Shown: positions 1,706 through 17,948, counted from the first letter of the stretch. The stretch: DNA of 64,000 nucleotides from Escherichia coli (GCF_044324785.1 NZ_CP172127.1); one strand, 5' to 3'. Made by a program: numbers and translations. Notes: generated by a model not told the origin, from the sequence alone.

Positions 1706-1709
1706 GGAC

Positions 1710-2061: not shown

Positions 2062-2069
2062 GGAGGCCA

Positions 2070-2088: not shown

Positions 2089-2295
2089 CTTGGAGGCAAT
2101 AAAGTGAACTATTCTGCCTGTAAATGGTATGAAGCGACCTCCGCACATTTTATCGGTGGCAGAAGCGGAGGCTCTATTTATTACAAGCCGATTCAGTGCC
2201 CTGCCGGGTACGTCATGACAGGTACAAGAATGTACGGCATCGGAGATGGTGTTGATGAAGAGCACGTCGATGCTTACTGTTGCCCTTTTGGTTAG
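2070..2295 (+). CDS. silent alternative PilV C-terminal cassette B' (Cys-containing)
   Basis: Open frame from repeat 3: CQSGLWLGGNKVNYSACKWYEATSAHFIGG...CCPFG; convergent with the currently expressed pilV C-terminus. Confidence 0.55.
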
Positions 2296-2331
2296 ATTCC
2301 GAGGGCCGGTATTTAATTTTCTCCCGTTGGC

Positions 2332-3534
2332 TTATTTCTCACAGATTGCTATAGCCTGGAAACAACTCAGGGAGCCAGAGCCAGTAGCAATCCACCGATT
2401 GTTTTTGTAATCAGGGTAACTACCATCTGGTGAGTTGTATCCGTTATGGACCCACTGGGATAACCTGTAGCCGCCGGAGACCAACTTACTCCCCGATGGG
2501 CATACCGCGTAAGACGATGTCTGAAAGCACCCATTCCCGCCGGATACTGTGAAACGCTCTTTTTTGTCACTGTTTTGCCACACACCGGATTGGCACGAAA
2601 GTATTGCCCCTTTACTGTCGCGGCCTACAAGTCCGTCCGGTGAGCAGGAAGTACCTGCGGTGGCTGTTTTTTCCAGCTGTAAATACTCACCCGTGGAAAG
2701 ACGCCCCTCAGACCGGACAGTTCCACCACTGACTTTTCCTCCTTTGAGCTCTCCTTCGGTTGTGATCCCTTTGTTGTTAACAGCACGTATCCATTGGCTG
2801 TCCGTCATGGTGAAGCCGCCACCATTTGGATGTAACCAACGATTTGATGTGACATCGCCTGAAAATCTGGCGTTTTTACCACTGGCTTCATTGATATTGG
2901 TGATGCTGTTATTATTCATATCAATGCCAGTATGCATTCTGTTTAAATCGGGTCTTCCCTGAACGCTGTAGCGGTAAAGCCGATCGCTTTCCTCCAGATC
3001 TTTTCCAGCCATTCGCATGGCGATATGCCCCTTGTTGCAGGTAATCTGATAATTACTTCCCAGATCGGTCCAGCCGCCAAAGGCACCTGTAACGGAATTA
3101 TTCTGGAGCATAAAACCACCGAGTCCATTAATCTGGCCCGCTATGCGACGTAACCCATCTTCTTTAATATCCTGTCCTCCGGTTGTGCAGGTAAGTGCTT
3201 CCAGACGACCGGATAAATTATTTTTTCTGATACCGGTAATATAGCTGTGTCCAAAGGGGGAGCGGGAAAAACCGTTGTTCAGATATCCCTGCTGAATTAA
3301 TTCATTTACCGTGATGGTTTTACTGGAAAGTGAGCTGGTTTTATCAGCCACATAATTCTTTATTGCATTATTATATTCATCAGCATGTAAAGCCGCACTT
3401 TGATAAAGTTGTTCATTCAGCCAGTCTTCAATTTCTGAATAAATCATTGGCGTGGCGATACCAATTACTATCAGGCCTGCCAGAATTTCAAGCAGAATAA
3501 AACCTTTATCGTCATCGTGTCTGAATTTTTTCAC
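2332..3534 (-). CDS. pilV: type IVB minor pilin/adhesin PilV, current shufflon isoform (400 aa)
   Basis: Prepilin-like N-terminus (MKKFRHDDDKG/FILLEILAGLIVIGIA); C-terminal third lies inside shufflon segment B; GTG start overlapping the pilU stop. Confidence 0.8.
   Translation of the reverse strand: MKKFRHDDDKGFILLEILAGLIVIGIATPMIYSEIEDWLNEQLYQSAALHADEYNNAIKNYVADKTSSLSSKTITVNELIQQGYLNNGFSRSPFGHSYITGIRKNNLSGRLEALTCTTGGQDIKEDGLRRIAGQINGLGGFMLQNNSVTGAFGGWTDLGSNYQITCNKGHIAMRMAGKDLEESDRLYRYSVQGRPDLNRMHTGIDMNNNSITNINEASGKNARFSGDVTSNRWLHPNGGGFTMTDSQWIRAVNNKGITTEGELKGGKVSGGTVRSEGRLSTGEYLQLEKTATAGTSCSPDGLVGRDSKGAILSCQSGVWQNSDKKERFTVSGGNGCFQTSSYAVCPSGSKLVSGGYRLSQWVHNGYNSPDGSYPDYKNNRWIATGSGSLSCFQAIAICEK
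2578..2596 (-). repeat. shufflon 19-bp repeat 4, inside pilV at the constant/variable junction
   Basis: Plus strand reads ccacacaccggattggcac; in pilV it encodes CQSGVW. Confidence 0.85.
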
Positions 3535-4181
3535 GTGAATATCTCCGATGTGTGGATAACGGAATCAGGGAAGAGGGTCAGCACATACAGGGACCCGCAG
3601 AGAAACGGGGCAAACGGCAGCGCCAGCTGGCGTCTGCGACGGCAGAAAATGAGGATAAACAGAAATGCTCCGGAGGCTGCGGCGGTGATTATGAGTGGAG
3701 TGTGTTGCGGTTGCGTCCACATTGCGATCCCCGCAATCAGGAACACATCACCAAGGCCGAGCGCTTCCGTCCCTTTCGCTGCCAGAAAAATGCGTCGTAA
3801 CAGGTATATCATGCCGAACCACAGTGACGCGTTGAGCAGGGCATGAGCCAGTGAGTCCTGGCTGTATCTGAACGCTGCGCCCAGAATAATAAGAGAAAGC
3901 GTGAATATCCGGGGAAGCCGACAGACAGCAATATCCGTCAGCGTCATTACAGTTAATAATCCCGTCAGAATGGAAAGGAATAACAGTCCTGTCGCGTCAA
4001 CACCATATGCACCGTTGAGGCAAATGCTCAGGACAGCCAGAAGACAACAGATGCACACCGCAGCGTTGTGTGGGCGGGTATTGTGTACTTCTGATAAATA
4101 TACTGTGGCGGCGCTGTATGAAAGATACAGAATTGCCGCAAGGACAATCAGGATAATGCATATCGGGAGTAATTCAGACAC
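3531..4181 (-). CDS. pilU: prepilin peptidase (216 aa)
   Basis: Polytopic membrane protein in the expected pil-operon position; GTG start. Assigned by synteny with the R64 thin-pilus operon and hydrophobicity profile. Confidence 0.65.
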   Translation of the reverse strand: MSELLPICIILIVLAAILYLSYSAATVYLSEVHNTRPHNAAVCICCLLAVLSICLNGAYGVDATGLLFLSILTGLLTVMTLTDIAVCRLPRIFTLSLIILGAAFRYSQDSLAHALLNASLWFGMIYLLRRIFLAAKGTEALGLGDVFLIAGIAMWTQPQHTPLIITAAASGAFLFILIFCRRRRQLALPFAPFLCGSLYVLTLFPDSVIHTSEIFT

Positions 4182-4193
4182 AGTTACCTCAGC

Positions 4194-4670
4194 TTAATCT
4201 TTTCTGAAATACCGGTTGTGGATTATTCGGGCATATATCATGCGCCGGGCTGTGTTATTTTTGCTGAATCCTGCGTTGTAACTGCCAAGGCATTCCCAGT
4301 TAACGCCGCAGCGTTGAAAATGGCGGGCCAGTATCCAGGCACCGGTATGAATATTCAGGCAGGGCTTTTTAAGCAGTTCATCCTTGTTTTTAATGACGCC
4401 CAGTTTTTTCAGTTCAGGAATATGCACTGAATTAATCTGCATTATTCCGTAATCCGTACTGATGATTTTTCCGGATTTGTTTTTATTGTGATTTATCGCA
4501 GTGGCGACCAGGCCGCTTTCCTGCTGTGCAATGGTTTTCAGAAGCTCAGGGGCAATCAGGTAACGTTTTCCGGCCTGAATAAAACAGGAATCGAGATGAT
4601 TATTATTCATCACAGATGCGATTGATGTGTGACTGAATAAAAGCAGGACAGAGAGATATAACCATTTCAT
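4194..4670 (-). CDS. pilT: lytic transglycosylase, SLT domain (158 aa)
   Basis: Signal peptide followed by SLT-like motifs (TIAQQESG, YGIMQIN); in R64-type operons pilT is a transglycosylase, not the retraction ATPase. Confidence 0.75.
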   Translation of the reverse strand: MKWLYLSVLLLFSHTSIASVMNNNHLDSCFIQAGKRYLIAPELLKTIAQQESGLVATAINHNKNKSGKIISTDYGIMQINSVHIPELKKLGVIKNKDELLKKPCLNIHTGAWILARHFQRCGVNWECLGSYNAGFSKNNTARRMIYARIIHNRYFRKD

Positions 4671-4728
4671 TATGATAATCCCGGCAGTGACAGCATCCTC
4701 TGGTATTTAAGGATGCTGTCCGGAAACA

Positions 4729-5265
4729 TTAGCTGTTTGTTTCAAGGGTGATGTTATTTTTGTCGTTACTACATACTGTTACGGGATCCACAGTAGCCGG
4801 GGCGGTATTCATGATTTTGGTAAACATGGATGAACTGCGCAGGCTGTTAATGAGTTCCACGCAATTTTCTTTCGGTACATTATTGCTGGTAATCGTATAA
4901 CCATACTTATCTGCTGTTGCCTTAATGGTGACATCACCGCCCCAGGCATTTTTGGCCTTGTTACCACCGGCGATCATATCGGCCGGCAGGGAACCACTCT
5001 GCGTCAGCGTTTTGATATAATCACTGCTGGTATATTGTCCCTGGAACTTGTACTGCTTCATTTTTGTTGCAATAGTCTGCAGGTTTTTCAGTTCACGCTG
5101 GTTATCACTGGATGACATTGTGCTGGACATCTGACTTATTGCGAGAGATACCACAATACCGATGATAATCAGTGCACCGGCAACTTCCAGTAAGGTTAAA
5201 CCTTTATCCTCCTCTTTCTCTTTTTTTAAAGCAAAATAAGAATAAAGACATGATCTGAAGTTCAT
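4729..5265 (-). CDS. pilS: type IVB major prepilin (178 aa)
   Basis: Long leader then G/LTLLEV cleavage motif and hydrophobic alpha-helical N-terminus; AGGAG RBS upstream. Confidence 0.8.
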   Translation of the reverse strand: MNFRSCLYSYFALKKEKEEDKGLTLLEVAGALIIIGIVVSLAISQMSSTMSSSDNQRELKNLQTIATKMKQYKFQGQYTSSDYIKTLTQSGSLPADMIAGGNKAKNAWGGDVTIKATADKYGYTITSNNVPKENCVELINSLRSSSMFTKIMNTAPATVDPVTVCSNDKNNITLETNS

Positions 5266-5314
5266 ATATCACTCCTGGTTTATGGGATGTTTCAGAAATA
5301 TTCTGTATGCGGGA

Positions 5315-6415
5315 TTATTGTTTCAGCATGTCGCTGATACTGTAGATGGCAGATATCATGTTAAGAATAAAAAAGAAGACAAAACCTCCTGATATACCGG
5401 TAATAATTAATCCCATTCGTTTTACCCGTTTTTTTGCCTCTTCCAGCCACTGATCGGCATAGAGTGCCATGGTTGCCACTCTGTCCTCCCTTTCGGAGTT
5501 CAGGAGCAGTTTATTGATGCATATTCTGGACGGAAAATCGTAACCGGAATTTCGCATTGCTGTGGCCAGATTCTGACCGGATAATACATGTTTTCGTATT
5601 GCCTGAATTCTCTCCTTTAACCATTTATTCTTTTCTGCACCTTTTTCCATTCGGAGCAGCGCCTGCGAAAGAGGAATATTAATCTGCAGCATGGATGAAA
5701 TACTGAACAGATAATTCACCCCGTGTAAGGTCTGATACAGTGACCAGGGGGGAGCCTTGTCCAGCATCCTCCGGCCGGGGCCGGTATACCGGCTGAATGA
5801 AAAACGGATCAGAAGCGTCAGGGCGAAAATGGTCCCACAGAGCCAGAATCCGTACCCGATGAAAAATTCCGACATGCCGGCAAGCAATTTCATCTGGAAT
5901 GACCATTTATCTTCTGAAGCAAACGCACTGACGATGGGGATGATACGGGTATGGGCGTTGTACATATTCACCACACAGAGCGAAAGCAGCAGAAGGGGGT
6001 AGAGGCAGACGGCAATGAGGCTGGATGTCATTTCCCGCCGGGCTTTAACGGTTCTGGCCACCTGGAAAAGGGCGTCGGCAATATTTCCGCGCTCTTCCCC
6101 GTTTCTGATTAACGTGGCTTCCTCCGGTGGCACCCAGGTTAACAGGGCACCGGATAACATGCCGCTGGCTTTGATGGAATCGATGCATTCTTTTGCCAGA
6201 AAATACATGCCGGATGTGCCTTTCTTTTCACCAAAATCGGTTTCGATCTCGCAGAGAAATTCGAGTGCACGCAGGGACGGCGTTCCGTCACGTATCATGC
6301 CGCCCAGGGCTTCGTAGAACTCCACCCGGTTCAGGGCAAAGGTTTTTCTGGCTATCCAGACAGTCAGTGCTGTCAGCTCAATGTCGGTGTTGTTGAGTTT
6401 TTCCAGAAATCTCAT
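5315..6415 (-). CDS. pilR: type IV pilus inner-membrane platform protein, GspF/PilC-like (366 aa)
   Basis: Start set to ATG at 6415 (MRFLEKLNNTD...), immediately after the pilQ stop; size agrees with R64 PilR. Confidence 0.7.
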   Translation of the reverse strand: MRFLEKLNNTDIELTALTVWIARKTFALNRVEFYEALGGMIRDGTPSLRALEFLCEIETDFGEKKGTSGMYFLAKECIDSIKASGMLSGALLTWVPPEEATLIRNGEERGNIADALFQVARTVKARREMTSSLIAVCLYPLLLLSLCVVNMYNAHTRIIPIVSAFASEDKWSFQMKLLAGMSEFFIGYGFWLCGTIFALTLLIRFSFSRYTGPGRRMLDKAPPWSLYQTLHGVNYLFSISSMLQINIPLSQALLRMEKGAEKNKWLKERIQAIRKHVLSGQNLATAMRNSGYDFPSRICINKLLLNSEREDRVATMALYADQWLEEAKKRVKRMGLIITGISGGFVFFFILNMISAIYSISDMLKQ

Positions 6416-6416
6416 G

Positions 6417-7937
6417 TCAGTGCAGCAGCGTATAGCTGTCCTCGTCGATGGGAGAGATGTAATGGGCCGCCAGCGGATCAACCTGCCCGCTGTTGATTTT
6501 TCCCAGCAGATGCTGATTTCGTGTCATGCCGCCCAGCTCCCGGTGCCAGTATGTTCTGGCCTCAATACGCCCCTTTTCCCGGTACAACTGGAAAAAACGC
6601 GCATCCGGGGAGATGACTTCTGCGATCACCGTTCGTCCTGTCACGCCACGCCAGCAGTGCGGGCAGCCTTCATGATTTCGCAGATATACCTGGTCCGGGT
6701 TGCAGACGCTTTCCACCAGGCGCCGTTCATCATCCGTGCGCTCGGTAGCCACCTCATGCCAGGGGCGACGGCAGTGCGGACATATCAGCTGAACCAGACG
6801 CTGGCTCAGCAGGCCAATGAACAGTTGCGGGTCGGCAATCATCCTGGCCTGTACCCCCTCCATCTCAAGACGTTCGAGGATGTTAATCGGGTCGTTCGCA
6901 TGGATGGTGGTCAGCATCAGATGCCCGGTCATGGCGGCTTTTATTGCCGTAATGGCGGAATCGTGGTCACGGATTTCGCCGTTCAGGATCCCGTCAGGGT
7001 CAAGACGCAGTGCTGATTTAATGGAGTCCACCCAGCCCTGTGCGGAATCCATGACGGCGGTCTGAATGGCACCGGGTATACGGCCCTCTGGCGGGGATTC
7101 AATGGTGAACAGCCTGCGACGGGGCAGAAGAATACCGCCGGTATTGTTGAAGCCGTACTGTTCAAGGTACGCCGCAGAGGCGGTTCTCAGCGTGGTGGAT
7201 TTTCCTGAACCTGTTGGTCCTGAGAGCGTGATAATACCTTCAGGGCGCTGCAGAATACGGCGCAGGGTGCGCTCCTGCTCAGGGTGGTAGCCCAGCATGC
7301 TGAAGGTCGGGATTTGCTGACTGTCATCCTTGATCAGACGGAGCACAGCATAGAGGCCGCCCACGCAGGGATAGTGGGAGTAGCGTGCACCAAACAGACC
7401 GGCCAGTTTCAGGTACTGCTCTGAAAGACGCGCATCCTGAGGCACCCCGGGATCAAACTGTGTGCCCTTGATGACGTCGGTCATGCCGGAATAGGTGGCC
7501 CCCAGTAATTCGAGGCCTTCTTCTTTCCGGAGGATATCGAGCACTTCCAGTTCGCCGTGAACCCGGGCTTCCACATAGGTGAAGTCCGTGTTGTCTCGTC
7601 CCGGGGTCATATGAAGGTCTGAGGCATCCAGTTGAGCGGCTTTTCTGATGTAATCAAGAACTTTTCTTTGTACTGTGTTGATCCCTCCGTCGGATAAAAC
7701 GCCCGGTGCACGTTCCGTATTATTGCTGTTCAGGGTTGCGATAACGTCAAGAGTGGTAAAATCGAATTTGCTGATTTTTCCCGGATAGCGGGAGCGTAAG
7801 AGCGTCAGGTAACGTTGTACAGAGGTGATGTGCTTCTTCGCCTCGACGACTTTCACCCTGATTTTTCCGTCAGCGTCATGCTGAATTGCGACGAAATCAC
7901 GAATATCTTCAGGAGGCAGTTCGATAGTCTCTGGCAT
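6417..7937 (-). CDS. pilQ: type IV pilus assembly ATPase, GspE family (506 aa)
   Basis: Walker A (LSGPTGSGKSTTL) and tetracysteine motif (CPHC...CPHC). Confidence 0.85.
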   Translation of the reverse strand: MPETIELPPEDIRDFVAIQHDADGKIRVKVVEAKKHITSVQRYLTLLRSRYPGKISKFDFTTLDVIATLNSNNTERAPGVLSDGGINTVQRKVLDYIRKAAQLDASDLHMTPGRDNTDFTYVEARVHGELEVLDILRKEEGLELLGATYSGMTDVIKGTQFDPGVPQDARLSEQYLKLAGLFGARYSHYPCVGGLYAVLRLIKDDSQQIPTFSMLGYHPEQERTLRRILQRPEGIITLSGPTGSGKSTTLRTASAAYLEQYGFNNTGGILLPRRRLFTIESPPEGRIPGAIQTAVMDSAQGWVDSIKSALRLDPDGILNGEIRDHDSAITAIKAAMTGHLMLTTIHANDPINILERLEMEGVQARMIADPQLFIGLLSQRLVQLICPHCRRPWHEVATERTDDERRLVESVCNPDQVYLRNHEGCPHCWRGVTGRTVIAEVISPDARFFQLYREKGRIEARTYWHRELGGMTRNQHLLGKINSGQVDPLAAHYISPIDEDSYTLLH

Positions 7938-7946
7938 GATGGCACC

Positions 7947-8408
7947 TCACGGGAGTAGCGTCTGCCTGTTGCCGTTGTATTCCAGAATCACACTGTCCGG
8001 TGTGATTTGTTCCACCATGAACAGTGTACCGGGTAATGCCTGTCCGGCCCTGACATCAGTTTCAGTTCCTCCGGGGAGTATGACGCGTGCTGAAAGCTGT
8101 GGCTGAATACCAAAGATTTCTTTCAGACGGGGGGATGAAAATGCCTGTGAACCGGAGGAGGTGCCAGCCGCATTTTCCGGCTGATGTCCCGTGACAGAAC
8201 CGGAAACCGGGGAGATACCCTGTTCCAGTGTCCGCAATTCATGACGAATTTTTTCTCTTGCCAGCATCGCTTCATACAGGGCGGTTTCTTCCTGAATCTG
8301 CTCAATCTGCAGTTGTTTGTTCTGTGACGCGTCATTTTCGTTGCCGGCCACTGCCATTGCCGGTAACAGCAGGGCTGCAATCAGCAGCGCTTTTGTTTTA
8401 TCGTGCAT
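7947..8408 (-). CDS. pilP: pilus assembly protein PilP-like (153 aa)
   Basis: Internal ATG at 8408 gives a signal-peptide N-terminus (MHDKTKALLIAALLLPAMAVA); size matches R64 PilP. Confidence 0.65.
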   Translation of the reverse strand: MHDKTKALLIAALLLPAMAVAGNENDASQNKQLQIEQIQEETALYEAMLAREKIRHELRTLEQGISPVSGSVTGHQPENAAGTSSGSQAFSSPRLKEIFGIQPQLSARVILPGGTETDVRAGQALPGTLFMVEQITPDSVILEYNGNRQTLLP

Positions 8409-9693
8409 AATATTTACCTGTGAACTGATAACGGAAACGACCATTTTCCAGTTGTCTTGTGACAGAGAGAAAACGGACAGATGGCTCGCTGAAGCGCTCT
8501 GCCAGCTGGTTAGCCGGGAGTAGCGTCTGTATCTGCAGGTCATACTCTTTCCACGGTGGCTGGATGATGTTTCCGTTTTCATCAGTGAAGCTGTTATTGA
8601 CTTCCTGCCAGTCAATCTGCAGTTGAACTGACTGTGCGAGCGTGGTCAGTCGTTCCTGCAGGTCTCGGGTTTCCGGAAGGGAATCAACCGGGACAGGATT
8701 ATCCGGGAGCCGGAATGTGACCGGCAGTGCAACGCCGCCAGAGTTCCCTTCAGGCATAACAATAAACGGCCGGGTGTCTGTGAGTTCAGTGATGCGCCGG
8801 ATGAAGGCTGTCACTGTCGTGCCTGCTGTATTGGTGTATGAAGACCGCAGATTACCGCTGTTACCGTCAGAAGAACATTCAGCCAGGGTATAACGCCATC
8901 CGGCAGCAGACAGTGGCGTCTGGTTCCATGTTGTGCTGCATTGCCGGATAAATTCTCCGCTCTCAGGCTGCCTCGTCCATGGTGGCGTTATACGTGCTTC
9001 AGCTGCTTTCCGGGCGCTTTCTTCCCGTTCCGCTTTTTCCGCCTGCCAGATTTCATAACGTTGCCAGCCGTACCACGATGCGCCAAGCAGCGTGATGATG
9101 AGTAAGGCTGTCATTAACTGTGGGCCTCTGGACACGGGGAGCAGACGCGCTTCTGCCGGATGCTTTCTGGTGCTGATCAGGTTTGACAGCGGTAGCGGGA
9201 TACACCGACTGTCTGGTGAAAAACCGTCAGGTTCGTAGCGTACCCAGCCGTTTTCCGGTTCCGCATTGAGCATCAGGAACGTGTTGCGGGCTTCCGTGAT
9301 TTCAGTCGGGGTACCGGTAACGTCGTTAACCAGAATGCCATTAATCACCGATACAAACGCACAGGTGAGTTCAGCGTCGTCGTTCTCGTCGTTCCCGATG
9401 ATGAAAATGGCATACCCACCTGATTTGAGTAGCGGGCGTATTAACATTGCCAGTGACAGGCACTGGCGAATGTTACGGGGGATATCTGCATCCTGACGAC
9501 TGAGCAGGGCAATCATCATTTCATCACCGTTTTCACCGTCGTGGTTGTGGCAGGAAAGATACAGTTCTGCGCCCTGTGACCGGGCAAACCGCCGGGCATT
9601 CCGGTAACCGGGAGGTATGCTCTTCCAGTCAAGGCCCGCAAGGAATGCCTGTTTACCCGATATCAGTGAAACCGGACGAATTTTTTTCTGCAT
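8398..9693 (-). CDS. pilO: pilus assembly protein PilO-like (431 aa)
   Basis: Start at ATG 9693 (MQKKIRPV...); length equals R64 PilO as I recall it; one internal TM segment. Assigned by synteny. Confidence 0.65.
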   Translation of the reverse strand: MQKKIRPVSLISGKQAFLAGLDWKSIPPGYRNARRFARSQGAELYLSCHNHDGENGDEMMIALLSRQDADIPRNIRQCLSLAMLIRPLLKSGGYAIFIIGNDENDDAELTCAFVSVINGILVNDVTGTPTEITEARNTFLMLNAEPENGWVRYEPDGFSPDSRCIPLPLSNLISTRKHPAEARLLPVSRGPQLMTALLIITLLGASWYGWQRYEIWQAEKAEREESARKAAEARITPPWTRQPESGEFIRQCSTTWNQTPLSAAGWRYTLAECSSDGNSGNLRSSYTNTAGTTVTAFIRRITELTDTRPFIVMPEGNSGGVALPVTFRLPDNPVPVDSLPETRDLQERLTTLAQSVQLQIDWQEVNNSFTDENGNIIQPPWKEYDLQIQTLLPANQLAERFSEPSVRFLSVTRQLENGRFRYQFTGKYYAR

Positions 9694-9716
9694 TGACCCG
9701 TTCAAGGGAACCTCCG

Positions 9717-11342
9717 TCAGATTACGTGCGGTGTGATCAGCACAACCAGAATGGTGTCATCGTCACCGCTGTCAGTGCCGCCACCCAGCCCGAAGAATGC
9801 CGGGCTGCCGACGCCCTGGCGCACGGATTTGCTGCCGGACTGCCGGAATCCGCTGAGAATGACGGTCTGACCTGATTTCAGGTCGATGGTCTGGTTGATG
9901 GTTTTCAGGTCCACCGTGGGTACCTGTGCCCGGCTGCCGCCGCTCTCGAACACCTCAAAGGTGGGTTTGTCGGAGAGGTTCATGCTGAAGAGCAGCTGCA
10001 GGCTGCGCGCATCCGGCTGAATGAACGGCAGCAGGGTCATGTTGAAGCCGGTGGTGATGGTGGCGGCGTTCAGGGAGGTGCTGGTCCCGACGTTGGCCGT
10101 GGTGTCGGTGGTGACACCTTCGATATAGCCCTGCTGGCTGGCCACCTGCATGGGCACCGGCGTCATGTTTTTGGTGACGGCGGAGTTCTGTGTGACCACG
10201 CTGACGGTGCCCTGACTGGAGAGCGCCTTCAGGAAGGCCTTCGAGCCGGTGAGCTTACCGTCCACAATGGAGACGCCACTGGTGATGATGTCATCGGCGG
10301 CACTGCTGAATGCCCCTCCCAGCGTGAGGCCGAGACGTCCGTCGCTGAAGACGGCATTCCAGTCAATGCCGGCCTGGTCACGGCGGGTTTTTCTGACGCT
10401 GAGGACTTCCACGTTCAGCACCACCTGACGTCGCATCTCGCGGTTACGTGCCTCCACAAAACGGCTGACGGTGTCGAGGACCCGAGGGGTGTCGGTGACG
10501 GTGAGAAAGCCGGTGGCAAGCACCATCCGGCCGGTCCCGGGGGTCAGCATGGCACCGACGGCATTTTTCAGGTCCTCATAGAGGGTGGACTTCATGTCGA
10601 CCGTGGTGGTCTGGGTGTTGCTGGCCTCCCCGCTGAGGGTGCCGGCGTTACTGCCGGTACTGCTGCCGGATGAGGAGGAGGCGGTGCCACTGACCACCCG
10701 GGCGTTGTAGGTCACCTGAGAGTCCATGTAGGTGACCGGGAAGGTGCGTGTCTCCAGCCAGTAAAAGGTGATGGCGCGCCGGTCACTGTCGTAACGGTAC
10801 GAGATACCGAGCCGGGAGGCGACGGTATCCAGCAGCTGCCGCAGCCCGGTGGCGCTGAGTTCCGGCAGGACGGCACCGCCGCCCGGGGGGATGACCTGTG
10901 CGCCACTGCCGACGGCGGCCAGCGGCACCATGCCGTTCGGGTCCGGTGCGGGGATTGCGCCTGTCAGCTGCTGTGTGGGGCCGGTGGTGGCCAGCGCCTG
11001 CCAGACGTCGGCGGTGATGGTCACGGGGATACCGCAGCTTCCGGTGATGCGCTGGGCTATCTGCCGCAGGCTGATATCCCGGCGGGTGTTGATGATGATG
11101 GGGCAGCCCGGCAGGCTCTGGTGTGCGGGGCTGACGCTGACAGGGGAGGGGTTGATCCACTGTCGCGTGGTCTCCGTGACCACCGGCCGGGATTTACGGA
11201 GTTCGCCTGCGTGCCGGCGCGCTTTCTCCAGTGTGGCGGTGGCGTCTTTTTCCGTGTTGCTGATACGTTCGGCCGTACCGCAGCCTGACAGCAGCAGGGC
11301 GACGGCAGTCAGTGGCAGGAGCATGTGTTGTCTTTTTTTCAT
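9717..11342 (-). CDS. pilN: outer-membrane secretin lipoprotein (541 aa)
   Basis: Lipoprotein signal (MKKRQHMLLPLTAVALLLSGCG); secretin-like C-terminal region (...ILVVLITPHVI). Confidence 0.8.
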   Translation of the reverse strand: MKKRQHMLLPLTAVALLLSGCGTAERISNTEKDATATLEKARRHAGELRKSRPVVTETTRQWINPSPVSVSPAHQSLPGCPIIINTRRDISLRQIAQRITGSCGIPVTITADVWQALATTGPTQQLTGAIPAPDPNGMVPLAAVGSGAQVIPPGGGAVLPELSATGLRQLLDTVASRLGISYRYDSDRRAITFYWLETRTFPVTYMDSQVTYNARVVSGTASSSSGSSTGSNAGTLSGEASNTQTTTVDMKSTLYEDLKNAVGAMLTPGTGRMVLATGFLTVTDTPRVLDTVSRFVEARNREMRRQVVLNVEVLSVRKTRRDQAGIDWNAVFSDGRLGLTLGGAFSSAADDIITSGVSIVDGKLTGSKAFLKALSSQGTVSVVTQNSAVTKNMTPVPMQVASQQGYIEGVTTDTTANVGTSTSLNAATITTGFNMTLLPFIQPDARSLQLLFSMNLSDKPTFEVFESGGSRAQVPTVDLKTINQTIDLKSGQTVILSGFRQSGSKSVRQGVGSPAFFGLGGGTDSGDDDTILVVLITPHVI

Positions 11343-11531
11343 GCAGAAATCCTTGTGTGAAACGTGAAAACAGTGAGCAGAGCAGGGAGGGCAGAAGCGC
11401 TTCGGGACTGAAGTCTGCGCGTGATGGCGATATATCCGCGGGACATGACCGCGGCCGGATATGCAGACTTCAGTCCACAGGCTCCTCACACTGTGCGGGA
11501 CAGCGAAGGTTAACGGTGCAGTGATGTCCCG

Positions 11532-11969
11532 CTAGTTGAAATAAACAAATGCGCTGTCAGGAATGACGGACGGCACGCTGATACCGGTGTCCTGACCTGT
11601 GGTGTTCAGCAGTCGCCGCCCCTTCACCCGGCCTGCCAGCGCGGTTTTGTGGGTGATGTCTGCCAGCGCACCTGCAAGCCCCGGGCGGTCATCCTGCCAG
11701 ACAAAGACCCGCTGTCCGGCGATGATATGGCGGGTACCGTATACCGGGCGGAAACCCGTGGCGGTGACGGGGAGCGTGCCACCCCCCGTGCGCTCAGCCG
11801 GATGGGTGTACAGCCGGTCGTTAATGCCGTTCATGAGGCGGACCATCTCCCACGCACGTTCACGCATCTCCGCCTGCTCGCTGTACACGGTGACCCGGTG
11901 GGTACTGCTGTTGTGAAACCAGGTCAGCGCCACGGTCAGGGCCATGACCAGGGAGAGCGACCAGCCCAT
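11532..11969 (-). CDS. pilM: pilus assembly protein PilM-like (145 aa)
   Basis: Start at ATG 11969 (MGWSLSLVMALTVALTW...), directly after the pilL stop. Assigned by synteny and size. Confidence 0.6.
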   Translation of the reverse strand: MGWSLSLVMALTVALTWFHNSSTHRVTVYSEQAEMRERAWEMVRLMNGINDRLYTHPAERTGGGTLPVTATGFRPVYGTRHIIAGQRVFVWQDDRPGLAGALADITHKTALAGRVKGRRLLNTTGQDTGISVPSVIPDSAFVYFN

Positions 11970-11971
11970 GG

Positions 11972-12697
11972 TCAGTCTCCCGGTCTGTCGCTGACGTGCA
12001 CCACACACTGCGTGCTGTTGATGGCTGCATACAGCGGCGTCTGTGCGTCCTGATAGAGACGGAAGAGTTCACTGAGCGCGTGGCGGAACTCGCCGGTGAA
12101 ATGCAGCGGCGCATCGATGCTGTAATTGAGTCCGGGGTTCTGCCAGGCCAGCTGCCAGGTGCCACCGGCCTGACAGGGAACGGCGGCCACCCACTGCTCA
12201 AGACCGGCACGCAGCAGGGTTCCGCGGGCAAGAGTCCAGGTGGTCCGTGCATGCGCCGGTTGCGGCATGTTTGCTGATTTTTCCGCGGTTTTTTCCTGCA
12301 GACTGGTGGTGCCCGGGGTGGCCTGAGACGGACTGAACAGGGTGTTCCGCTCAATACGTACATGCTTCTTCTCCGTGTCGGTGATGGCGCGGAGCTGATA
12401 TTTTTTCAGCATGCGTTCCGTAACGTAATTCCACTGGTCATTTCCCTTCCATGACACCGTGCGGGGCGGCCTGACATCCGGTGCAATGTCAAATGTCCAT
12501 CCCGGCGGTATCAGTTGCTGCATGGCTTTTTTCAGTGATAACCCTTTACCGTCCCGGGGAATAAATTTCAGTGCTCCCGGAGCGCTGCTGACCGTGGACG
12601 ATGAGGGTGCACTGACCTGAGAAGGTGACGGTGCAGCAAAAAGTGGAACAGAAAATGCCAGCAGCGGCACAATAAGAAGTGGTTTCAGTGGTGTCAT
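11972..12697 (-). CDS. pilL: pilus assembly protein PilL-like, secreted (241 aa)
   Basis: Signal peptide (MTPLKPLLIVPLLAFSVPLFAAPSPS); first large gene of the operon. Assigned by synteny. Confidence 0.6.
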   Translation of the reverse strand: MTPLKPLLIVPLLAFSVPLFAAPSPSQVSAPSSSTVSSAPGALKFIPRDGKGLSLKKAMQQLIPPGWTFDIAPDVRPPRTVSWKGNDQWNYVTERMLKKYQLRAITDTEKKHVRIERNTLFSPSQATPGTTSLQEKTAEKSANMPQPAHARTTWTLARGTLLRAGLEQWVAAVPCQAGGTWQLAWQNPGLNYSIDAPLHFTGEFRHALSELFRLYQDAQTPLYAAINSTQCVVHVSDRPGD

Positions 12698-12749
12698 ATT
12701 ATGGTCCTGTATCGCACATTTTTTGTGTTTCCTGAGCCTGTATCCGGTT

Positions 12750-12968
12750 TTATTCCGGCTGAACTCTGCTGCATGAGAATGCGGTGACGTTCACTTTCAC
12801 ACTGAACGATTTACCGGCCTCTTTTTCTTTTGAAAACAGCCTGACGCATTCAGGCTCAGTCATCGGTGTGTTCTGAAAACGCACCCAGGATACCGGTGCA
12901 CCACCAGGCTTCAGGATGGTGGCTTCAATCCGGTATTTATGCGGTGTGGTGTCTGTTGTTGCTGTCAT
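12750..12968 (-). CDS. small hypothetical protein (72 aa) leading the pil operon
   Basis: ATG preceded by AGGAG at about 6-nt spacing; co-directional with pilL, about 50 bp upstream. Confidence 0.45.
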   Translation of the reverse strand: MTATTDTTPHKYRIEATILKPGGAPVSWVRFQNTPMTEPECVRLFSKEKEAGKSFSVKVNVTAFSCSRVQPE

Positions 12969-13005
12969 TCATGGCTCCTGTTGCCGGTTTCCGGTCCCGG
13001 AAAAA

Positions 13006-13047
13006 CAGGCGACATCAGCAACAAGGGGAAAAACGCGATGTCGCCTG
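13006..13047. promoter_or_regulatory. perfect 11-bp inverted repeat (caggcgacatc ... gatgtcgcctg) in the divergent control region between the pil operon and the helicase operon
   Basis: Seen directly in sequence; candidate operator or stem-loop. Confidence 0.35.
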
Positions 13048-13494
13048 AAAGGTACTGGTGCAGCGGTGCGTTGTACGGACGCAGGTCCGCACAACCGGAA
13101 ATACACGGGATGATTCGGTCAGTGTATTTTCGTGTTGTGCGCCTGTACTGATACGGCAGGGTGTGATGAGTGTTACCTGTGGCTGCAGGCGCGGCACGTC
13201 ACTCATAACGTAGCATTCTGTTTCCTCCTCAGCCCGGCTTCAGGGCGTTGCCGCAATACCCGATTGTTAAAGAGCCTTACCGGCATGGTGTCCGGTGTCA
13301 CCGCGCGGATAACGATACGGCGGTGTCTGAAGGGATGATGCTGCGGCGCTCTGCACATGGCGACGATTAATTCTTTTTGTGTTTCTGAAAATTTATTGCC
13401 GGGAAATTTCTGGTGTGACAGGGTGAATTAATTCTGGTCAGCGACGCTCCTGAGAAGGCAGAGTGCGCTGACATTTCGTGAACGGAGGAATGCC

Positions 13495-15003
13495 ATGTCC
13501 CTGAATCCCACCGATGAACAGTCAGCCATCATTCACTGGCAGGGGGAAAAACTGGTGGTGAATGCCTTTGCCGGTACAGGCAAAACCAGCACACTGGTGC
13601 AGTTCGCCGCAGCCTGCCCTGAGAGCCGGATGCTGTATCTGGCCTATAACCGCGCGATTCGTGATGAGGCGGAGCGCCGGTTTCCCTTTAATGTGGAGTG
13701 CAAAACCTCCCATCAGCTGGCGTATTCGCGGTTCGGAAAGCATTTCCGGCATCGTCTGGTGCCGGGGCTGTCAGTGACGGATGTAGCGAGAAAACTGAAC
13801 ACCCGCTACTGGACGCTTGCCCGTGTTGCCATGACCGCGCTGAATCAGTTCATCTGTTCGGCGGACGTGGCGCCCGGAATGCAGCATATGCCGCCTCCCG
13901 ACGAGATGAAGGGCATGTCGCCACAGGATGCGCTGCGTGCCGTGCAGATCCTCTGGCATGAAATGAGCAATCCGGATGGCAATTTTCCGGTCACTCACGA
14001 CACCTATCTGAAGCTCTATCAGCTTTCCTCACCGGATCTGTCACGCAGGTGGGATACGATCCTTTTTGATGAGGCCCAGGATGCGAATCCGGTGACGTCC
14101 GCACTGGTGCTGGGGCAGCGGTGCAGGGTGGTACTGGTTGGCGACCGTTACCAGCAGATTTATCGTTTTCGTGGTGCCAGCAATGCACTGTCGCATCCGG
14201 CACTGAACGGGGCGGACCGTCTCTGGCTGACGCAAAGTTTTCGTTTTGGTCCTGCCGTGGCCGGGGTGGCCAGCCAGTTACTGAAGCGTGCCGGCGAGAG
14301 CCGTGAGGTGACCGGCAGGGGCGGGGATGATGAAGTGCTGACGGCAGGTGAAATGCGTGCGCGCGTGAAGGCAGGGAAGATGACCGGTCACAGGGCGATA
14401 CTGAGCCGGACGGTGGCCGGTGTGATTGGCACCGCACTGATGGCGGCAATGCGTGGCAGGAAGGTTTACTGGGTGGGGGGCATTGAAGGCTACAGAACGG
14501 AGGCACTGGAAGATCTTTACTGGTTTCAGATGGATATGCCGGAGCGGATGCACAGTGACAGACTGCGGAAGGACTACCGGGGTTTTGACGAGTACCGTCA
14601 TATTGCGAAGGTGACGAAGGATGTGGAAATGAATCAGTCCATTCGTCTGCTGGAGCTGTGCTTTCCGCTGCCGAAGAAACTCGAACTTCTCAGAAAGCAC
14701 ACCGTCACGAATGAACAGGAGGCGGATATCACGGTCTCAACGGCACACCGCAGTAAGGGACTGGAGTGGTCACTGGTGGTACTCGATGATGATTTTCAGG
14801 ATATCACCGACCCGCTGATAAGCGAGCAGGAGCGGCGGGATGAAACCAATCTGCTCTATGTGGCGGTCACCCGGGCGCGCAGAACGCTGGTTCTCAATGA
14901 ACTCATGCAGCAGCTGACGGAAGCTGCCGGCGATGGTGGTGCACCCGGAAACGCGCCGGTGCAGGGGAAGGAAGACGATGGTGTGGAGGGAGAGGATGTT
15001 TAA
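13495..15003 (+). CDS. UvrD/Rep-like superfamily-1 DNA helicase, short form (502 aa)
   Basis: SF1 motifs in order: Walker A (AFAGTGKTS), DEAQD (motif II), VGDRYQQIYRFRGA (III), SFRFG, TAHRSKGLEW (V), LYVAVTRAR (VI); GGAGG RBS. Confidence 0.8.
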   Translation: MSLNPTDEQSAIIHWQGEKLVVNAFAGTGKTSTLVQFAAACPESRMLYLAYNRAIRDEAERRFPFNVECKTSHQLAYSRFGKHFRHRLVPGLSVTDVARKLNTRYWTLARVAMTALNQFICSADVAPGMQHMPPPDEMKGMSPQDALRAVQILWHEMSNPDGNFPVTHDTYLKLYQLSSPDLSRRWDTILFDEAQDANPVTSALVLGQRCRVVLVGDRYQQIYRFRGASNALSHPALNGADRLWLTQSFRFGPAVAGVASQLLKRAGESREVTGRGGDDEVLTAGEMRARVKAGKMTGHRAILSRTVAGVIGTALMAAMRGRKVYWVGGIEGYRTEALEDLYWFQMDMPERMHSDRLRKDYRGFDEYRHIAKVTKDVEMNQSIRLLELCFPLPKKLELLRKHTVTNEQEADITVSTAHRSKGLEWSLVVLDDDFQDITDPLISEQERRDETNLLYVAVTRARRTLVLNELMQQLTEAAGDGGAPGNAPVQGKEDDGVEGEDV

Positions 15004-16525
15004 GCGGTTCAGACGTATGCTGCCCGGCACAAAGGGCACGGAGCCTGGCGTGGTCGCGCCGGTGATACCGGCAGGGTTTTATGCGCCGCTCACGGCAGAG
15101 GCACTGTTATCACCAGAGCACAGGGAGCTGAGGCTCAGGCAGGTCTGGGATAACAATCCGATGCCCCGTGATGTATACGACAGGATGTGCCTTGAACCAC
15201 TCAGCCGGCTGCTGCTGAACACCCAGAACGTCCCGGCAACACGGGAAGGACGGTGGTCCCGTGCCGGTGGATTTGGTGATCTGACGGTACTGTACACCAC
15301 GTATGCCGTTCGTCTGGCAAGAGGGTACATGTTTCCACCGGATGCGACCCCGGAAGACCAGGCGGCTCAGGCCGCAGTCTGGCATGCGGTGATTTTCTGG
15401 TCAGCGCTGTTTTACCACCTGCCCCTGCTGGCGCACCTTGAGGGGGAACTGCTGAGTGGGCGGGGCTGGCAGCCAGGAATTTCTGTGCCTGACGAACCTT
15501 TCCGTTTCCGGTTCAGGAAGACGGCGCCGCAGGGTACGGAAGCGCAACAACTTGCGGCCCTGACTGCCGGCACGCTGTTACCGGACGGCGCAACGGCCTG
15601 GCTTGTGACGGCGCCGGGCGCACTGCAGAATCTGGCCGGGGCGCTCTGGCATCAGCATCCCGGGATGGCGCTGATTCGTGATGTGCTGCAGGAAGCGGCA
15701 AGGCAGACAGAGAGTCCGCTGAATACCTGCGCTGTCACTGCGCCGGTTACTGCGGAGGCTTCAGCAGACATTCGTCCTGCTGACCCGGTGGTGACCGGCA
15801 GCACGGACAGTGTGGTGGCAGTCACTGAGGTGCAGCCGGCAGAGGAGGTGAAGACTGAGAGCGTGCAGACAGAGACTGAAGGTGGTGGTGAGTCCGCCGG
15901 GGCGTCAGAGGTGCCGTCCGCACAGCAGGAACTGACGGTTCAGACAGCGCCAGTGGTGACGGCAGATGATGAAGCGGTCAGTGCTGCTCCTGCGGATCAG
16001 GACACAGCAATGCTGCTGAGTCTTTTTTCAGCAGATGAGTCCGAAACTGCTGAACCTGAAAACAGTATTAAATCGTCAGCCGATCGGGACGGCCAAAGTG
16101 ACGTACCGGCAGTACAGGGAGAACAAACCAGCGTTATTTATCCGGAGGGCGAAGCAGATACGGAAGAGGTGGATTTTATTACTTGGCTGAAATCGGGGTT
16201 GTCATCGGGGATGATTGAAATAAATACACCTTCCGCGAGAGTGCATTGTATTGCGGGGTATGTTTTTTTGTGTGTCCCGGATATTTTTTATCTGTATCAG
16301 AAAATGACGGGAAGCCGTCGTGACCGCAGGAGTGTTCAGGCGTTGTTTGAACGTTCCCGTATTCACAAAATCCGGGAAGGTGAGCGTTTTTTCAGCCTGC
16401 ATCTGTATAGTGTACCTGACAGAACAGGGAGTTATAAAGCTGTAAGCGGATATCTGGTTAAAAGCCGTTATCTGTGTGGTTATAACGCAGTGCCCGGGGA
16501 CAGTGAATACATTGCTTTTCCATAA
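14996..16525 (+). CDS. hypothetical 509-aa protein: N-terminal domain, long acidic low-complexity linker, conserved-looking C-terminal domain
   Basis: ATG overlaps the helicase stop (ATGTTTAA) with GGAGGG RBS; no Walker A and no HD motif found by eye; alternative starts at 14933 or 14978. Confidence 0.6.
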   Translation: MFKRFRRMLPGTKGTEPGVVAPVIPAGFYAPLTAEALLSPEHRELRLRQVWDNNPMPRDVYDRMCLEPLSRLLLNTQNVPATREGRWSRAGGFGDLTVLYTTYAVRLARGYMFPPDATPEDQAAQAAVWHAVIFWSALFYHLPLLAHLEGELLSGRGWQPGISVPDEPFRFRFRKTAPQGTEAQQLAALTAGTLLPDGATAWLVTAPGALQNLAGALWHQHPGMALIRDVLQEAARQTESPLNTCAVTAPVTAEASADIRPADPVVTGSTDSVVAVTEVQPAEEVKTESVQTETEGGGESAGASEVPSAQQELTVQTAPVVTADDEAVSAAPADQDTAMLLSLFSADESETAEPENSIKSSADRDGQSDVPAVQGEQTSVIYPEGEADTEEVDFITWLKSGLSSGMIEINTPSARVHCIAGYVFLCVPDIFYLYQKMTGSRRDRRSVQALFERSRIHKIREGERFFSLHLYSVPDRTGSYKAVSGYLVKSRYLCGYNAVPGDSEYIAFP

Positions 16526-16555
16526 CAGCACCGGGTCATTCATCCGTTCAGGGAG

Positions 16556-17668
16556 ATGTATTCCCCTATGAAGAAAGATGTCGAAAAAATAACGTGGGAG
16601 GAATTACTCTTTGAGTACTTCCTTGAGAAAAATCTTAAACCTGATACTGAACACAGCTACCGCAAAGTTGTCCGTCTGTTTGATAAGTTCCTGGGCGGTG
16701 ATTCCTGGCCCGGCGATGTCACACCGAGAGACATTCAGCGATGGCGACGTCATATGCTTAAAGATCAGGGGCGTTCAGTAAACACCTGGAATAACAGAGT
16801 GTCACATCTCCGACCGCTCCTGGCGCTTGGGATCAAGAAAAAGTGGTTACCACAGACGGAAAATCCGCTTGATGGCACTTCAGTGCCCGGGGCATCAAAA
16901 CAGAAAAAAACGCTCACTGATAAAGAGATGGTCAGGATTTACCGTACAGTTCAGGCTTTTGCTGAAGCTGAGGCCAATAAGATGGTGATCTGTGACAGGC
17001 GGCGCAATGCGATGTACCCTGCATGGTACTGGCTGATCGTGCTGGATACGCTGCGCTTCACGGGGATGCGTTTTAACCAGCTGAAACATATCAGGCTGAA
17101 GGATATTCATGAGGATGAGGCGGTGATTACCCTTCAGCTGGAAGGGAGTAAAACCCGACGTGAATGGCGTGTGCCGATTGTGGAATCGTTACGACTTTCA
17201 CTGAAACATCTTATTGAGTGCGCCCGTGTCAATGGTGCGTCGGATAATGACTATCTCTTTGATGTCTGCCTGTACAGCGAGCATTACAGTCCCGGGAAAT
17301 ACCAGTACTGTGCCAAAAGAGCGCATCAGTCGGTCAAATCTTTTTTCCGCAGACTGAGCCGTGAATGTGGTTTTTTTGTCTCGTCACACAGATTCAGACA
17401 CACACTGGCAACAAAGCTGATGGCGGCACCGGAGCGTAATCTGCACATGGTCAAATCCATTCTGGGGCACAGGAGTGTTGCCACCACCATGGAGTATATT
17501 GATTTTTCGGTGGAAGTTGCTGCTGAGGCACTGGAGGCTGAACTCGGTTTATCCACGGATGAGGCGACAAAAAGACGGATTAAAGAGGCGAAAAAACGCC
17601 GTGAGGCCAGTACCGGGAAAAAGGAAAAACAGGAAAGTTCTGGAGGGGAACTTTCTGACAAGGAATAA
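16556..17668 (+). CDS. int: tyrosine-type site-specific integrase (370 aa)
   Basis: Catalytic-domain motifs (RFRHTLATKLM; LGHRSVATTMEYIDF); about 200 bp from the tRNA-Phe 3' end. Confidence 0.85.
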   Translation: MYSPMKKDVEKITWEELLFEYFLEKNLKPDTEHSYRKVVRLFDKFLGGDSWPGDVTPRDIQRWRRHMLKDQGRSVNTWNNRVSHLRPLLALGIKKKWLPQTENPLDGTSVPGASKQKKTLTDKEMVRIYRTVQAFAEAEANKMVICDRRRNAMYPAWYWLIVLDTLRFTGMRFNQLKHIRLKDIHEDEAVITLQLEGSKTRREWRVPIVESLRLSLKHLIECARVNGASDNDYLFDVCLYSEHYSPGKYQYCAKRAHQSVKSFFRRLSRECGFFVSSHRFRHTLATKLMAAPERNLHMVKSILGHRSVATTMEYIDFSVEVAAEALEAELGLSTDEATKRRIKEAKKRREASTGKKEKQESSGGELSDKE

Positions 17669-17872
17669 ACATGCTTGACATCGGACCAGAATGGTGTAAG
17701 CATTTTTGCGTATGCGAGAGCGTGACACCTGTTACCAGCAGGTGCCACGCTTGAGGATACGATACTGAAACCACAGTGTAACCAGACTTACACGGAGATT
17801 TCGTTATGACCGGATCCTGTATTAGACGCCCGTTAAGGATCTCATCCCTTAACCAGCGTACTTTGATGCGTT

Positions 17873-17948
17873 TGGTGCCCGGAGGCGGAATCGAACCACC
17901 GACACGGGGATTTTCAATCCCCTGCTCTACCGACTGAGCTATCCGGGC
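17873..17948 (-). tRNA. pheV: tRNA-Phe (anticodon GAA), island integration site
   Basis: Reverse complement reads GCCCGGATAGCTCAGTCGGTAGAGCAGGGGATTGAAAATCCCCGTGTCGGTGGTTCGATTCCGCCTCCGGGCACCA; position downstream of yqgA matches pheV. Confidence 0.9.

Follow-up and report, generated by a model that had tools for sequence, protein, structure and literature searches.

A probable DNA-processing gene pair, encoding an FBH1-like helicase and a motif-less TraI, at the pheV end of an SPI-7/SGI-4-type integrative and conjugative element of Escherichia coli

The stretch of DNA analysed here (the window) comprises 64,000 nt of Escherichia coli sequence (GCF_044324785.1 NZ_CP172127.1), and we are concerned with a two-gene module at positions 13495-16525 that encodes a helicase and a TraI-like protein. 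The two genes are almost certainly the DNA-processing pair of a helicase–traI–integrase (hel–traI–int) block that closes an integrative and conjugative element (ICE) of the SPI-7/SGI-4 type (MPF_G) at the tRNA-Phe gene pheV. A reading made earlier from the sequence alone (the sequence-only reading) had treated the module as unassigned, its second protein as unrecognizable and the pair as the least explained content of the window. Both proteins have Pfam and NCBIfam assignments and RefSeq names, however, and the genes figure in papers on SGI-4, ICESb1 and PAPI-1, so that this view was overstated; the PGAP product names on identical DNA are 'UvrD-helicase domain-containing protein', 'TraI domain-containing protein' (also the RefSeq name of the second protein) and 'tyrosine-type recombinase/integrase', and the module is thus already annotated and published at the annotation level. 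The only unusual point is that TraI has lost every catalytic residue of the MOBH relaxases, and this too is already in the literature.

The second protein, called TraI below, matches the Pfam families TraI_2 (PF07514; residues 30-229, 2.2e-16) and TraI_2_C (PF07515/DUF1528; residues 393-505, 2.1e-15), which are precisely the hidden Markov model profiles that the sequence-only reading had proposed as a check. It passes the NCBIfam model TIGR03760, 'integrating conjugative element relaxase, PFGI-1 class' (193 bits, cut-off 161.4), and fails NF041494, the MobH family relaxase equivalog (74.7 bits, cut-off 200). AlphaFold predicts an N-terminal domain at about residues 20-245 and a C-terminal domain at residues 390-509, both with a predicted local distance difference test score (pLDDT) >90, and between them a segment (residues 251-388) that is disordered (pLDDT <50) save for a helix at residues 336-344. 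The three-part layout first seen in the sequence is therefore borne out, except that the linker measures about 143 aa where about 170 had been estimated; A, V, E, S, T and D are abundant in it, and its charged residues comprise 30 D+E and 4 K+R. A Foldseek search with the model returned PDB entries 2IPQ and 3KQ5 first, followed by weak matches to proteins with the HD fold (YhaM and phosphodiesterases). The C-terminal domain matches 2IPQ, the structure of the corresponding domain of the SPI-7 protein STY4665 (Salmonella Typhi), with about 36-37% identity, whereas the full-length matches at about 49% identity are to other E. coli and Salmonella proteins and not to STY4665. As modelled, this domain is a winged helix that resembles TcpK, which binds the origin of transfer (oriT), at the generic winged-helix level.

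The helicase has all of the superfamily 1 (SF1) motifs in its 502 aa, as had been supposed. Those read from the sequence are Walker A AGTGKTS (residues 26-32), DEAQD (192-196), GDRYQQIYRFRGA (216-228), SFRFG (248-252), HRSKGLEW (418-425) and VAVTRARR (456-463), so that the features of SF1A helicases of the UvrD/Rep/PcrA-like type (Walker A, DExQ, GDxxQ..FRGA and motifs IV-VI) are all present; its Pfam matches are UvrD_C_2, UvrD_C, UvrD-helicase and AAA_19. The closest solved relative is F-box DNA helicase 1 (FBH1, PDB 9XZJ), an anti-recombinase, to which residues 5-480 align end to end (E 1.9e-57), whereas the match to PcrA/UvrD (E ~5e-6) is poorer by some 50 orders of magnitude. FBH1 shares the motifs, although only FBH1 has an F-box/extra domain, while UvrD and PcrA are about 720 aa long and show marginal sequence similarity to the ICE protein. 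The helicase family to which the ICE and plasmid proteins belong may be the closest bacterial relative of FBH1. The start/stop overlap noticed between the two genes is present in the raw sequence as an 8 nt overlap, ATGTTTAA; in the segment GGATGTTTAAG at 14994-15004 the traI ATG occupies 14996-14998 and the helicase TAA 15001-15003.

The surroundings of the pair are those of the end of an ICE, and its position between a pil operon and an integrase gene, as originally described, is confirmed by the open reading frames (ORFs) and the tRNA gene (Table 1). The integrase starts 30-42 nt past the traI stop, the range reflecting the choice between the ORF start and the PGAP start, and neither a terminator nor a promoter was found when the traI–int gap was scanned for them. 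In NCBIfam the integrase has Xer-type matches, every one of them under the equivalog cut-off. The tRNA-Phe gene, the integrase gene and, directly upstream, traI together represent a tRNA-gene insertion with the element-end integrase next to traI. The tRNA gene is flanked by yqgA, speC and nupG, the same neighbours as in E. coli YZLc1-3 (L097), and this identifies the site as pheV. At the other side of the module the window contains a type IVB pilus operon with an rci shufflon, as in SPI-7-type ICEs. Eight complete E. coli genomes contain the whole of 12969..17872 (4.9 kb) from end to end at 99.8-100% identity, and part-length matches occur in 79 genomes, all of them chromosomal.

In the window the ICE leaves the left edge at rci, and the genes for MPF_G, TraD and replication were seen in a second strain, APEC E19035, in which a 100%-identical module lies at pheU and ends an element of ~78 kb. 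That element encodes replication and partition functions (ParA, the SPI-7-type island replicative DNA helicase DnaB-PI, ParB, STY4528- and STY4534-family proteins, TopB and Ssb), transfer functions (TraD, a conjugative VirB4-like ATPase, the full TIGR037xx set of ICE proteins, TraG-N and TraF) and, as cargo and pilus genes, ArdA, a type III restriction-modification (R-M) system, rci and the pil operon. Since the identical module ends a complete ICE in APEC E19035, the window holds the right-hand 18 kb of an SPI-7-type (MPF_G) ICE, and the suggestion that the second protein is an ICE relaxase or processing protein stands at the level of family (TraI_2 plus TraI_2_C) and of context. ICEKp258.2, which is alike in its pil and type III R-M genes, was considered as a relative and rejected, as it is an EARL-family island with a MOBQ relaxase. 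We note that the same ICE end is found with 100% identity at pheV (the window) and at pheU (APEC E19035, by dicD/dsbD), and that diverged variants of the ICE, including that of E. coli G1/2, are also at pheU; these insertions are consistent with recent movement between the two tRNA-Phe genes.

Table 1. Features of the hel–traI–int block and its surroundings (coordinates are those of the window)
Feature	Coordinates	Strand	Basis and remarks
SF1A (UvrD-like, FBH1-like) DNA helicase, 502 aa	13495..15003	+	ORF, Pfam, motifs; first gene of probable hel–traI–int operon
TraI-like protein, MOBH family, motif-less 'MOBH3' type, 509 aa	14996..16525	+	ORF, Pfam, NCBIfam
TraI_2 N-domain, residues 20-245	15053..15730	+	HD-hydrolase-like fold without alternative-3H, HD, catalytic Tyr/His, distal Asp
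Acidic disordered linker, residues 246-388	15731..16159	+	pLDDT, composition
TraI_2_C domain, residues 389-509	16160..16522	+	Predicted winged-helix-like DNA-binding fold
XerC/D-like tyrosine integrase of the ICE	16556..17668	+	ORF; PGAP start 16568; RefSeq 'tyrosine-type recombinase/integrase'
tRNA-Phe (pheV), attachment site and ICE right end	17873..17948	-	ARAGORN
rci, shufflon, type IVB (thin) pilus operon pilV..pilL, DUF1187 gene	128..12968	-	ORFs; RefSeq annotation of identical APEC E19035 DNA
Divergent control region, DUF1187/pil operon (-) versus helicase (+)	12969..13494	.	IR-A, IR-B, 37-nt block

The MOBH relaxase with which TraI can be compared is that of the gonococcal genetic island (GGI), the biochemically studied member and prototype of the MOBH2 group (Heilers et al., 2019; PMC6736028) and, according to a December 2025 review, the sole characterised MOBH relaxase. 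GGI TraI cuts single-stranded oriT DNA with Mn2+ or Co2+, and cleavage is abolished or strongly cut in mutants of S103, E104, H106-108, H161, D162, K165, Y212, H215 and D267; the H117A protein was too unstable for purification, and the role of H117 in the metal site comes from modelling (PMC6736028). Members of a further group, MOBH3, are without both the 3H and the HD motifs, 'suggesting an alternative function', and the examples given are STY4665 (2IPQ) and the Coxiella burnetii protein 3KQ5, folded crystal structures having been obtained for the C-terminal domain of the STY4665 type and for the Coxiella protein (PMC6736028).

A search of 1.84 billion representative proteins with the N-terminal domain of TraI gave 261 matches at E<=0.001, including 63 at E<=1e-30, and the 87 longest N-domain homologues were aligned with the query to give 88 sequences. 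The alignment splits cleanly. HD is found at the motif positions in 27 sequences, all of which have the full set PASExHHH...GGMLDH...LLHDIGK...DYxLH...ADQ/R except P0180 (HD pair only), and it is absent from the other 61, the query included. For PASExHHH the query has PATREGRW (residues 80-87), with T82, R83 and, in place of the three histidines, G85/R86/W87; DH is replaced by DL (H117 by L96) and HDxGK by YHLP- (Y140, H141 and a gap for the lysine). At the distal aspartate AD has become AA (D267 to A235), the catalytic Y212 and H215 correspond to G180 and A183, and Y93 and Y201, earlier tyrosine candidates in GGI TraI, correspond to L72 and F169. Positions kept in both clades are R43, Q77, P80, G91/G92, D95, E120, Q125, W129, W158, R170, R172 and W202, and no invariant tyrosine or histidine was found in the N-domain alignment of the motif-less clade. 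Nor was a Walker A motif found in TraI, so that both absences recorded in the sequence-only reading, of HD and of Walker A, are confirmed, the former as a property of the whole clade that has been published as MOBH3.

With TraI_2 and TraI_2_C homology, neither 3H nor HD, and direct matches to 2IPQ and 3KQ5, TraI is a MOBH3 protein. Because the loss is common to 61 of the 88 sequences, it represents the known MOBH3 condition and is neither a private peculiarity nor the mark of a pseudogene; the motif-less form makes up about 60 clusters when sequences are grouped at 50% identity, and each of its two domains has many positions that do not vary. GGI TraI has the same three-part layout, with a middle part that is disordered as judged from small-angle X-ray scattering there and from pLDDT here, and it shares the framework residues Q77, P80, G91/G92, D95, E120, W129 and R170, but it holds PASExHHH, H117, H161-D162-K165, Y212, H215 and D267, all of which are replaced in our protein. 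The Coxiella 3KQ5 protein is without the long linker. Within that linker the helix DTAMLLSLF (residues 336-344; 16001..16027, + strand) follows the consensus D-T-x-x-[LM]-L-[SNAD]-L-F, and the LLSLF motif recurs in the motif-less and in the canonical HD clades, the rest of the linker being unconserved. The beta-clamp-binding pentapeptide is QL[SD]LF, which DTAMLLSLF resembles, and the helix may thus be a protein-docking site.

The association of the helicase with TraI extends well beyond E. coli. A hel–traI–int order with overlapping genes was seen in five neighbourhoods, namely on two contigs (one from a metagenome), in Yersinia pestis, in a Salmonella ICE at pheV and in a 58-69%-identical E. 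coli variant at pheU; three more distant motif-less TraIs have the integrase and no helicase, and the integrase also follows the canonical HD TraI of the Haemophilus type. A scan of one genome per species, for which the query alignment sampled the motif-less Enterobacterales clade, gave 80 loci, all in Enterobacterales. Using tblastn, the helicase was found immediately 5' of traI in Pantoea, Erwinia, Klebsiella, Edwardsiella, Mixta, Pectobacterium, Brenneria, Serratia, Morganella, Citrobacter and Rosenbergiella. The genes overlap by 4-17 nt at 22 of the 32 hel–traI junctions that could be measured, mostly as ATGnTGA or ATGTTAA, and the overlap persists down to about 40% TraI identity. The same order in dozens of Enterobacterales loci means that the pairing is not due to chance, and hel–traI coupling is, by sequence comparison, a conserved feature of a large subclade. 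Among the loci the helicase is conserved at 60-67% and TraI at 40-57%.

In about 25 E. coli genomes the match is limited to the first 63% of the query. The helicase, the N-domain of TraI and the linker of E. coli YZLc1-3 are identical to those of the window but are joined to a different TraI_2_C domain and integrase, still at pheV, which places a recombination breakpoint inside the disordered linker, at about 16055 in the window. Xenorhabdus genomes have up to three truncated copies of TraI each, consisting of the N-domain and the linker as far as the LLSLF motif, without TraI_2_C; int comes next, followed by tRNA-Phe where this was checked (L050 and L064), and in the former locus (4863..7025) DUF1281 and methylase genes precede the truncated TraI.

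Forms of the pair without an integrase are carried by plasmids. On pEB102 of Erwinia billingiae the hel–traI genes come after genes for anti-restriction proteins and methylases, as is usual for a leading region, and are followed by dnaB-PI and parB, with no int; hel–traI without int is also present on many Pantoea plasmids and at a Chimaeribacter locus. The maintenance of the pair in these plasmids argues for a part in DNA processing, replication or transfer over one in site-specific recombination itself. MOB-suite (PLSDB) lists 17 of 24 plasmids with this type of TraI as 'non-mobilizable', so that in many cases TraI escapes recognition as a relaxase, and the capacity of these islands for transfer may be wrongly judged. 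Relaxase typing is moreover inconsistent, as pEB102, with the same backbone, is typed by MOB-suite as conjugative, MOBH and MPF_G.

Several described elements share the arrangement. The order traI then int has been called an 'integration module' in ICEHin1056 (p1056.62/63), ICESb1 (Sb0117/0118) and PAPI-1 (PA14_60130/60140), and the table in that paper stars both genes as affecting conjugation, though it is uncertain whether as 'essential' or as 'reduced' (PMC3864950). In SGI-4, ORF86 is traI and the adjoining ORF85 a helicase aiding it, beside xerC/xerD (PMC6543542). All four elements have, as here, traI just before the integrase at the tRNA-proximal end of an MPF_G ('GI-type T4SS', type IV secretion system) ICE, and in SGI-4 the helicase gene is directly before traI, again as here, and is read as an unwinding partner; Sb0117, PA14_60130 and SGI-4 ORF86 are likened to our TraI by annotation and gene order only. 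The TraI of the ICEHin1056 type differs in being canonical, with HD, and the GGI description has no adjacent helicase gene. As to cargo, this ICE carries pil/shufflon genes and type III R-M in place of Vi or metal resistance. A relaxase and a helicase are fused in F/R1 TraI, and NicK of ICEBs1 works with host PcrA and with HelP. These systems follow a common logic, in which a protein that processes DNA at the origin of transfer works with a UvrD/PcrA- or RecD-type helicase to unwind the strand to be transferred, but here there are two coupled polypeptides, the helicase is ICE-encoded and FBH1-like, and its partner is without catalytic residues. In the MOB_M systems TcpM plus TcpK (pCW3) and MpsA plus MpsB (SGI1), the likeness of TcpK to the TraI C-domain is a generic winged-helix one only.

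The genes identified here thus form the integrase-proximal DNA-processing end of a known ICE family (SPI-7, SGI-4 and HAI2 relatives) through which cargo for virulence, metal resistance and defence is disseminated in the Enterobacterales. The question is sharpened to how transfer starts when the sole 'relaxase' homologue is without all catalytic residues, and the outcome bears on relaxase-based typing.

A lead to another nicking enzyme comes from outside the window. MOB_M relaxases, which are tyrosine-recombinase-like, are reported to have been systematically missed and to be the commonest chromosomal relaxases; 44% of them are said to go with MPF_G ICEs, and that of SGI-4 had been overlooked (preprint 10.64898/2026.01.13.699239). 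The ICE with this module encodes a 301-aa protein with Phage_int_SAM_2 and Integrase_1 domains (L002 9369..10274, - strand), in which the R..K..HxxR..H..Y set is intact, and whose gene is not beside an attachment (att) site; NCBIfam gives this protein no match. Of 23 plasmid records with this TraI, 21 also have the gene, and it lies 7-8 kb upstream of hel–traI on Pantoea and Erwinia plasmids. Some 450-500 bp upstream of it there is a noncoding block with a long hairpin (GGCGTCACTTT...AAAGTGACGC; L002 10640..10900; NZ_CP126926.1, about 4646650-4646900); gene and block are also found at L098 2260..3712. The block shows 77% identity when the E. coli ICE is compared with pEB102, against only 31-50% for the proteins, and the changes to its inner stem are compensatory. 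On these features the Integrase_1 protein is a candidate MOB_M-type relaxase, and the hairpin block appears to be a better oriT candidate than the region adjacent to the helicase. When the window was searched with the hairpin core common to pEB102 and the ICE (GCGTCACTTT), only matches at chance level were found.

From the gene structure, the domain families, the missing motifs, the conserved coupling and the ICE context we infer a mechanism in which TraI would be a non-catalytic DNA-binding adaptor that loads the co-translated FBH1-like helicase, with the nick made by another enzyme, and to this we give about an even chance. TraI keeps the MOBH architecture (HD-fold N-domain, acidic linker and winged-helix C-domain) and yet most likely no longer nicks. 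Recognition of ICE DNA would fall to the winged-helix C-domain together with the basic/polar surface that the N-domain retains; the helicase would be produced stoichiometrically with TraI by way of the conserved start/stop overlap, and recruitment or loading of this FBH1/UvrD-like enzyme by TraI would allow the ICE strand to be unwound or cleared of proteins. TraI would probably also tie the DNA to the coupling protein TraD. The best candidate for the enzyme that nicks would be the 301-aa Integrase_1 protein beside the strongly conserved hairpin, which would fit with the MOB_M relaxases reported for MPF_G ICEs such as SGI-4. A broader proposal, which we make tentatively and regard as possible but doubtful, is that the 'TraI relaxase' of SPI-7/SGI-4-type elements in general is a catalytically dead pseudo-relaxase acting as a winged-helix/HD-fold DNA adaptor that is co-translated with the FBH1-like helicase, and that a mis-annotated MOB_M-type protein nicks at a hairpin tens of kb away; the helicase might then be loaded in the donor, or might clear RecA and help establishment and integration in the recipient. 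If this were true, the MOBH typing of a whole family of ICEs and plasmids would be wrong.

Several points weigh against the adaptor mechanism. The helicase is absent alongside the same type of TraI in Photorhabdus, Xenorhabdus and the cus/pco ICE, so that it is accessory and not obligatory for this type; the Integrase_1 protein could be a resolvase; and both its gene and the conserved hairpin are outside the window. Moreover, the 3H and HD mutants of GGI TraI still secreted DNA in vivo (PMC6736028), so that loss of the motifs is no absolute proof of inactivity, Sb0117 of ICESb1 and PA14_60130 of PAPI-1 are flagged for conjugation, which equally fits a real relaxase (PMC3864950), and pEB102 is typed as MOBH and conjugative. 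The last three points would also favour a TraI that is a genuine nicking relaxase, its active site lying unrecognised within the same fold and the helicase serving as its unwinding partner, in effect a split relaxase–helicase analogous to F TraI or to NicK plus PcrA. To this reading, the main rival, which we judge rather unlikely, can be added the MOBH homology with a TIGR03760 score above the cut-off, the status of TraI as the only relaxase-like annotated protein of the whole ICE, and the conserved D95, E120, E151, R170 and R172, which could form a different metal/phosphate site. However, none of the residues essential to cleavage in the characterised MOBH enzyme is kept, the three candidate tyrosines among them, the clade has no invariant tyrosine or histidine in the N-domain, the relaxase function of MOBH3 has been doubted in the literature (PMC6736028), and SGI-4, which is related, reportedly has a MOB_M relaxase (preprint 10.64898/2026.01.13.699239).

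The module might alternatively serve excision, integration or establishment, TraI being an accessory or directionality factor of the integrase and the helicase supporting replication of the excised circle or stripping RecA from the single-stranded DNA that enters the recipient. We consider this improbable, although a variety of observations point to it: the helicase is closest to FBH1, an anti-recombinase; the integrase comes after TraI in nearly all chromosomal loci, the canonical-HD relatives included; Xenorhabdus has multiple N-domain-only copies of TraI with int at tRNA-Phe; the C-domain and int were swapped jointly in E. coli YZLc1-3; the pEB102 pair follows leading-region genes; traI–int bears the name 'integration module' (PMC3864950); and the title of Vanga et al. 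(2015) ties ECA0613 to mobilisation of HAI2. Adjacency and joint swapping may nevertheless be plain linkage, a traI insertion might alter excision through polarity on int, which starts so close downstream, and hel–traI is kept on the plasmids that have no int. The least credible of the explanations is the alternative raised in the sequence-only reading, in which the ICE would carry, as cargo, a helicase-dependent system of phage defence or exclusion. The helicase does match the PADLOC models for GajB and a DRT helicase at 1e-19, and the island bears type III R-M and ArdA elsewhere (as seen in APEC E19035), but the GajB matches are of partial coverage and reflect generic SF1 similarity, no GajA/OLD nuclease is a neighbour, the partner has no match to any PADLOC family and is a TraI_2/TraI_2_C protein, and the pair belongs to the ICE backbone, its position by int being kept across genera and the pair itself being kept on plasmid forms. 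Nor is it at all likely that traI is what is left of a MobH relaxase gene that was formerly active and is now decaying and without function, a reading for which the loss of all catalytic motifs and the truncated Xenorhabdus copies might be cited: the full-length ORF is intact, the coupling is conserved, both domains fold with high confidence, the roughly 60 motif-less clusters have their many invariant positions, and the C-domain of the STY4665 type and the Coxiella protein crystallised in folded form. The idea of a pseudogene was rejected on the grounds of conservation and fold confidence.

The region between the helicase gene and the DUF1187/pil operon had been proposed as a place to look for an oriT. 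It contains two hairpins, IR-A (13006..13047, DNA fold z -6.4) and IR-B (13088..13141, z -5.3), both of which survive in the 71%-identical version of E. coli G1/2, where IR-B shows two compensatory pairs; it also contains a 37-nt block (13168..13204) that is identical in the window and in E. coli G1/2. The hairpins are significant and lend the proposal weak support, but their conservation is confined to E. coli variants, no similarity to 12969..13494 being detected in other genera, and in pEB102 just 116 bp precede the helicase. Between 12700 and 13700 there was no Rfam match at E<=1, no sigma-70 promoter and no terminator-like site. As the region separates divergent operons, local regulation is likelier than an oriT, and from its sequence it is probably regulatory and a weak oriT candidate. 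At the edge of the 37-nt block, upstream of both hairpins and of the DUF1187/pil operon, there is a mini-ORF of five codons, MLRYE* (MLRRE* in E. coli G1/2; 13199..13216, - strand), with a strong GAGGAGG Shine-Dalgarno sequence at 13221..13230, an arrangement that may represent a leader peptide or attenuator. At the far end of the pil operon, within 128..3534, the gene for an Rci-type recombinase adjoins pilV and several short ORF fragments that lie in opposite orientations (1328..2330), a typical shufflon arrangement, which would vary the adhesin tip of PilV.

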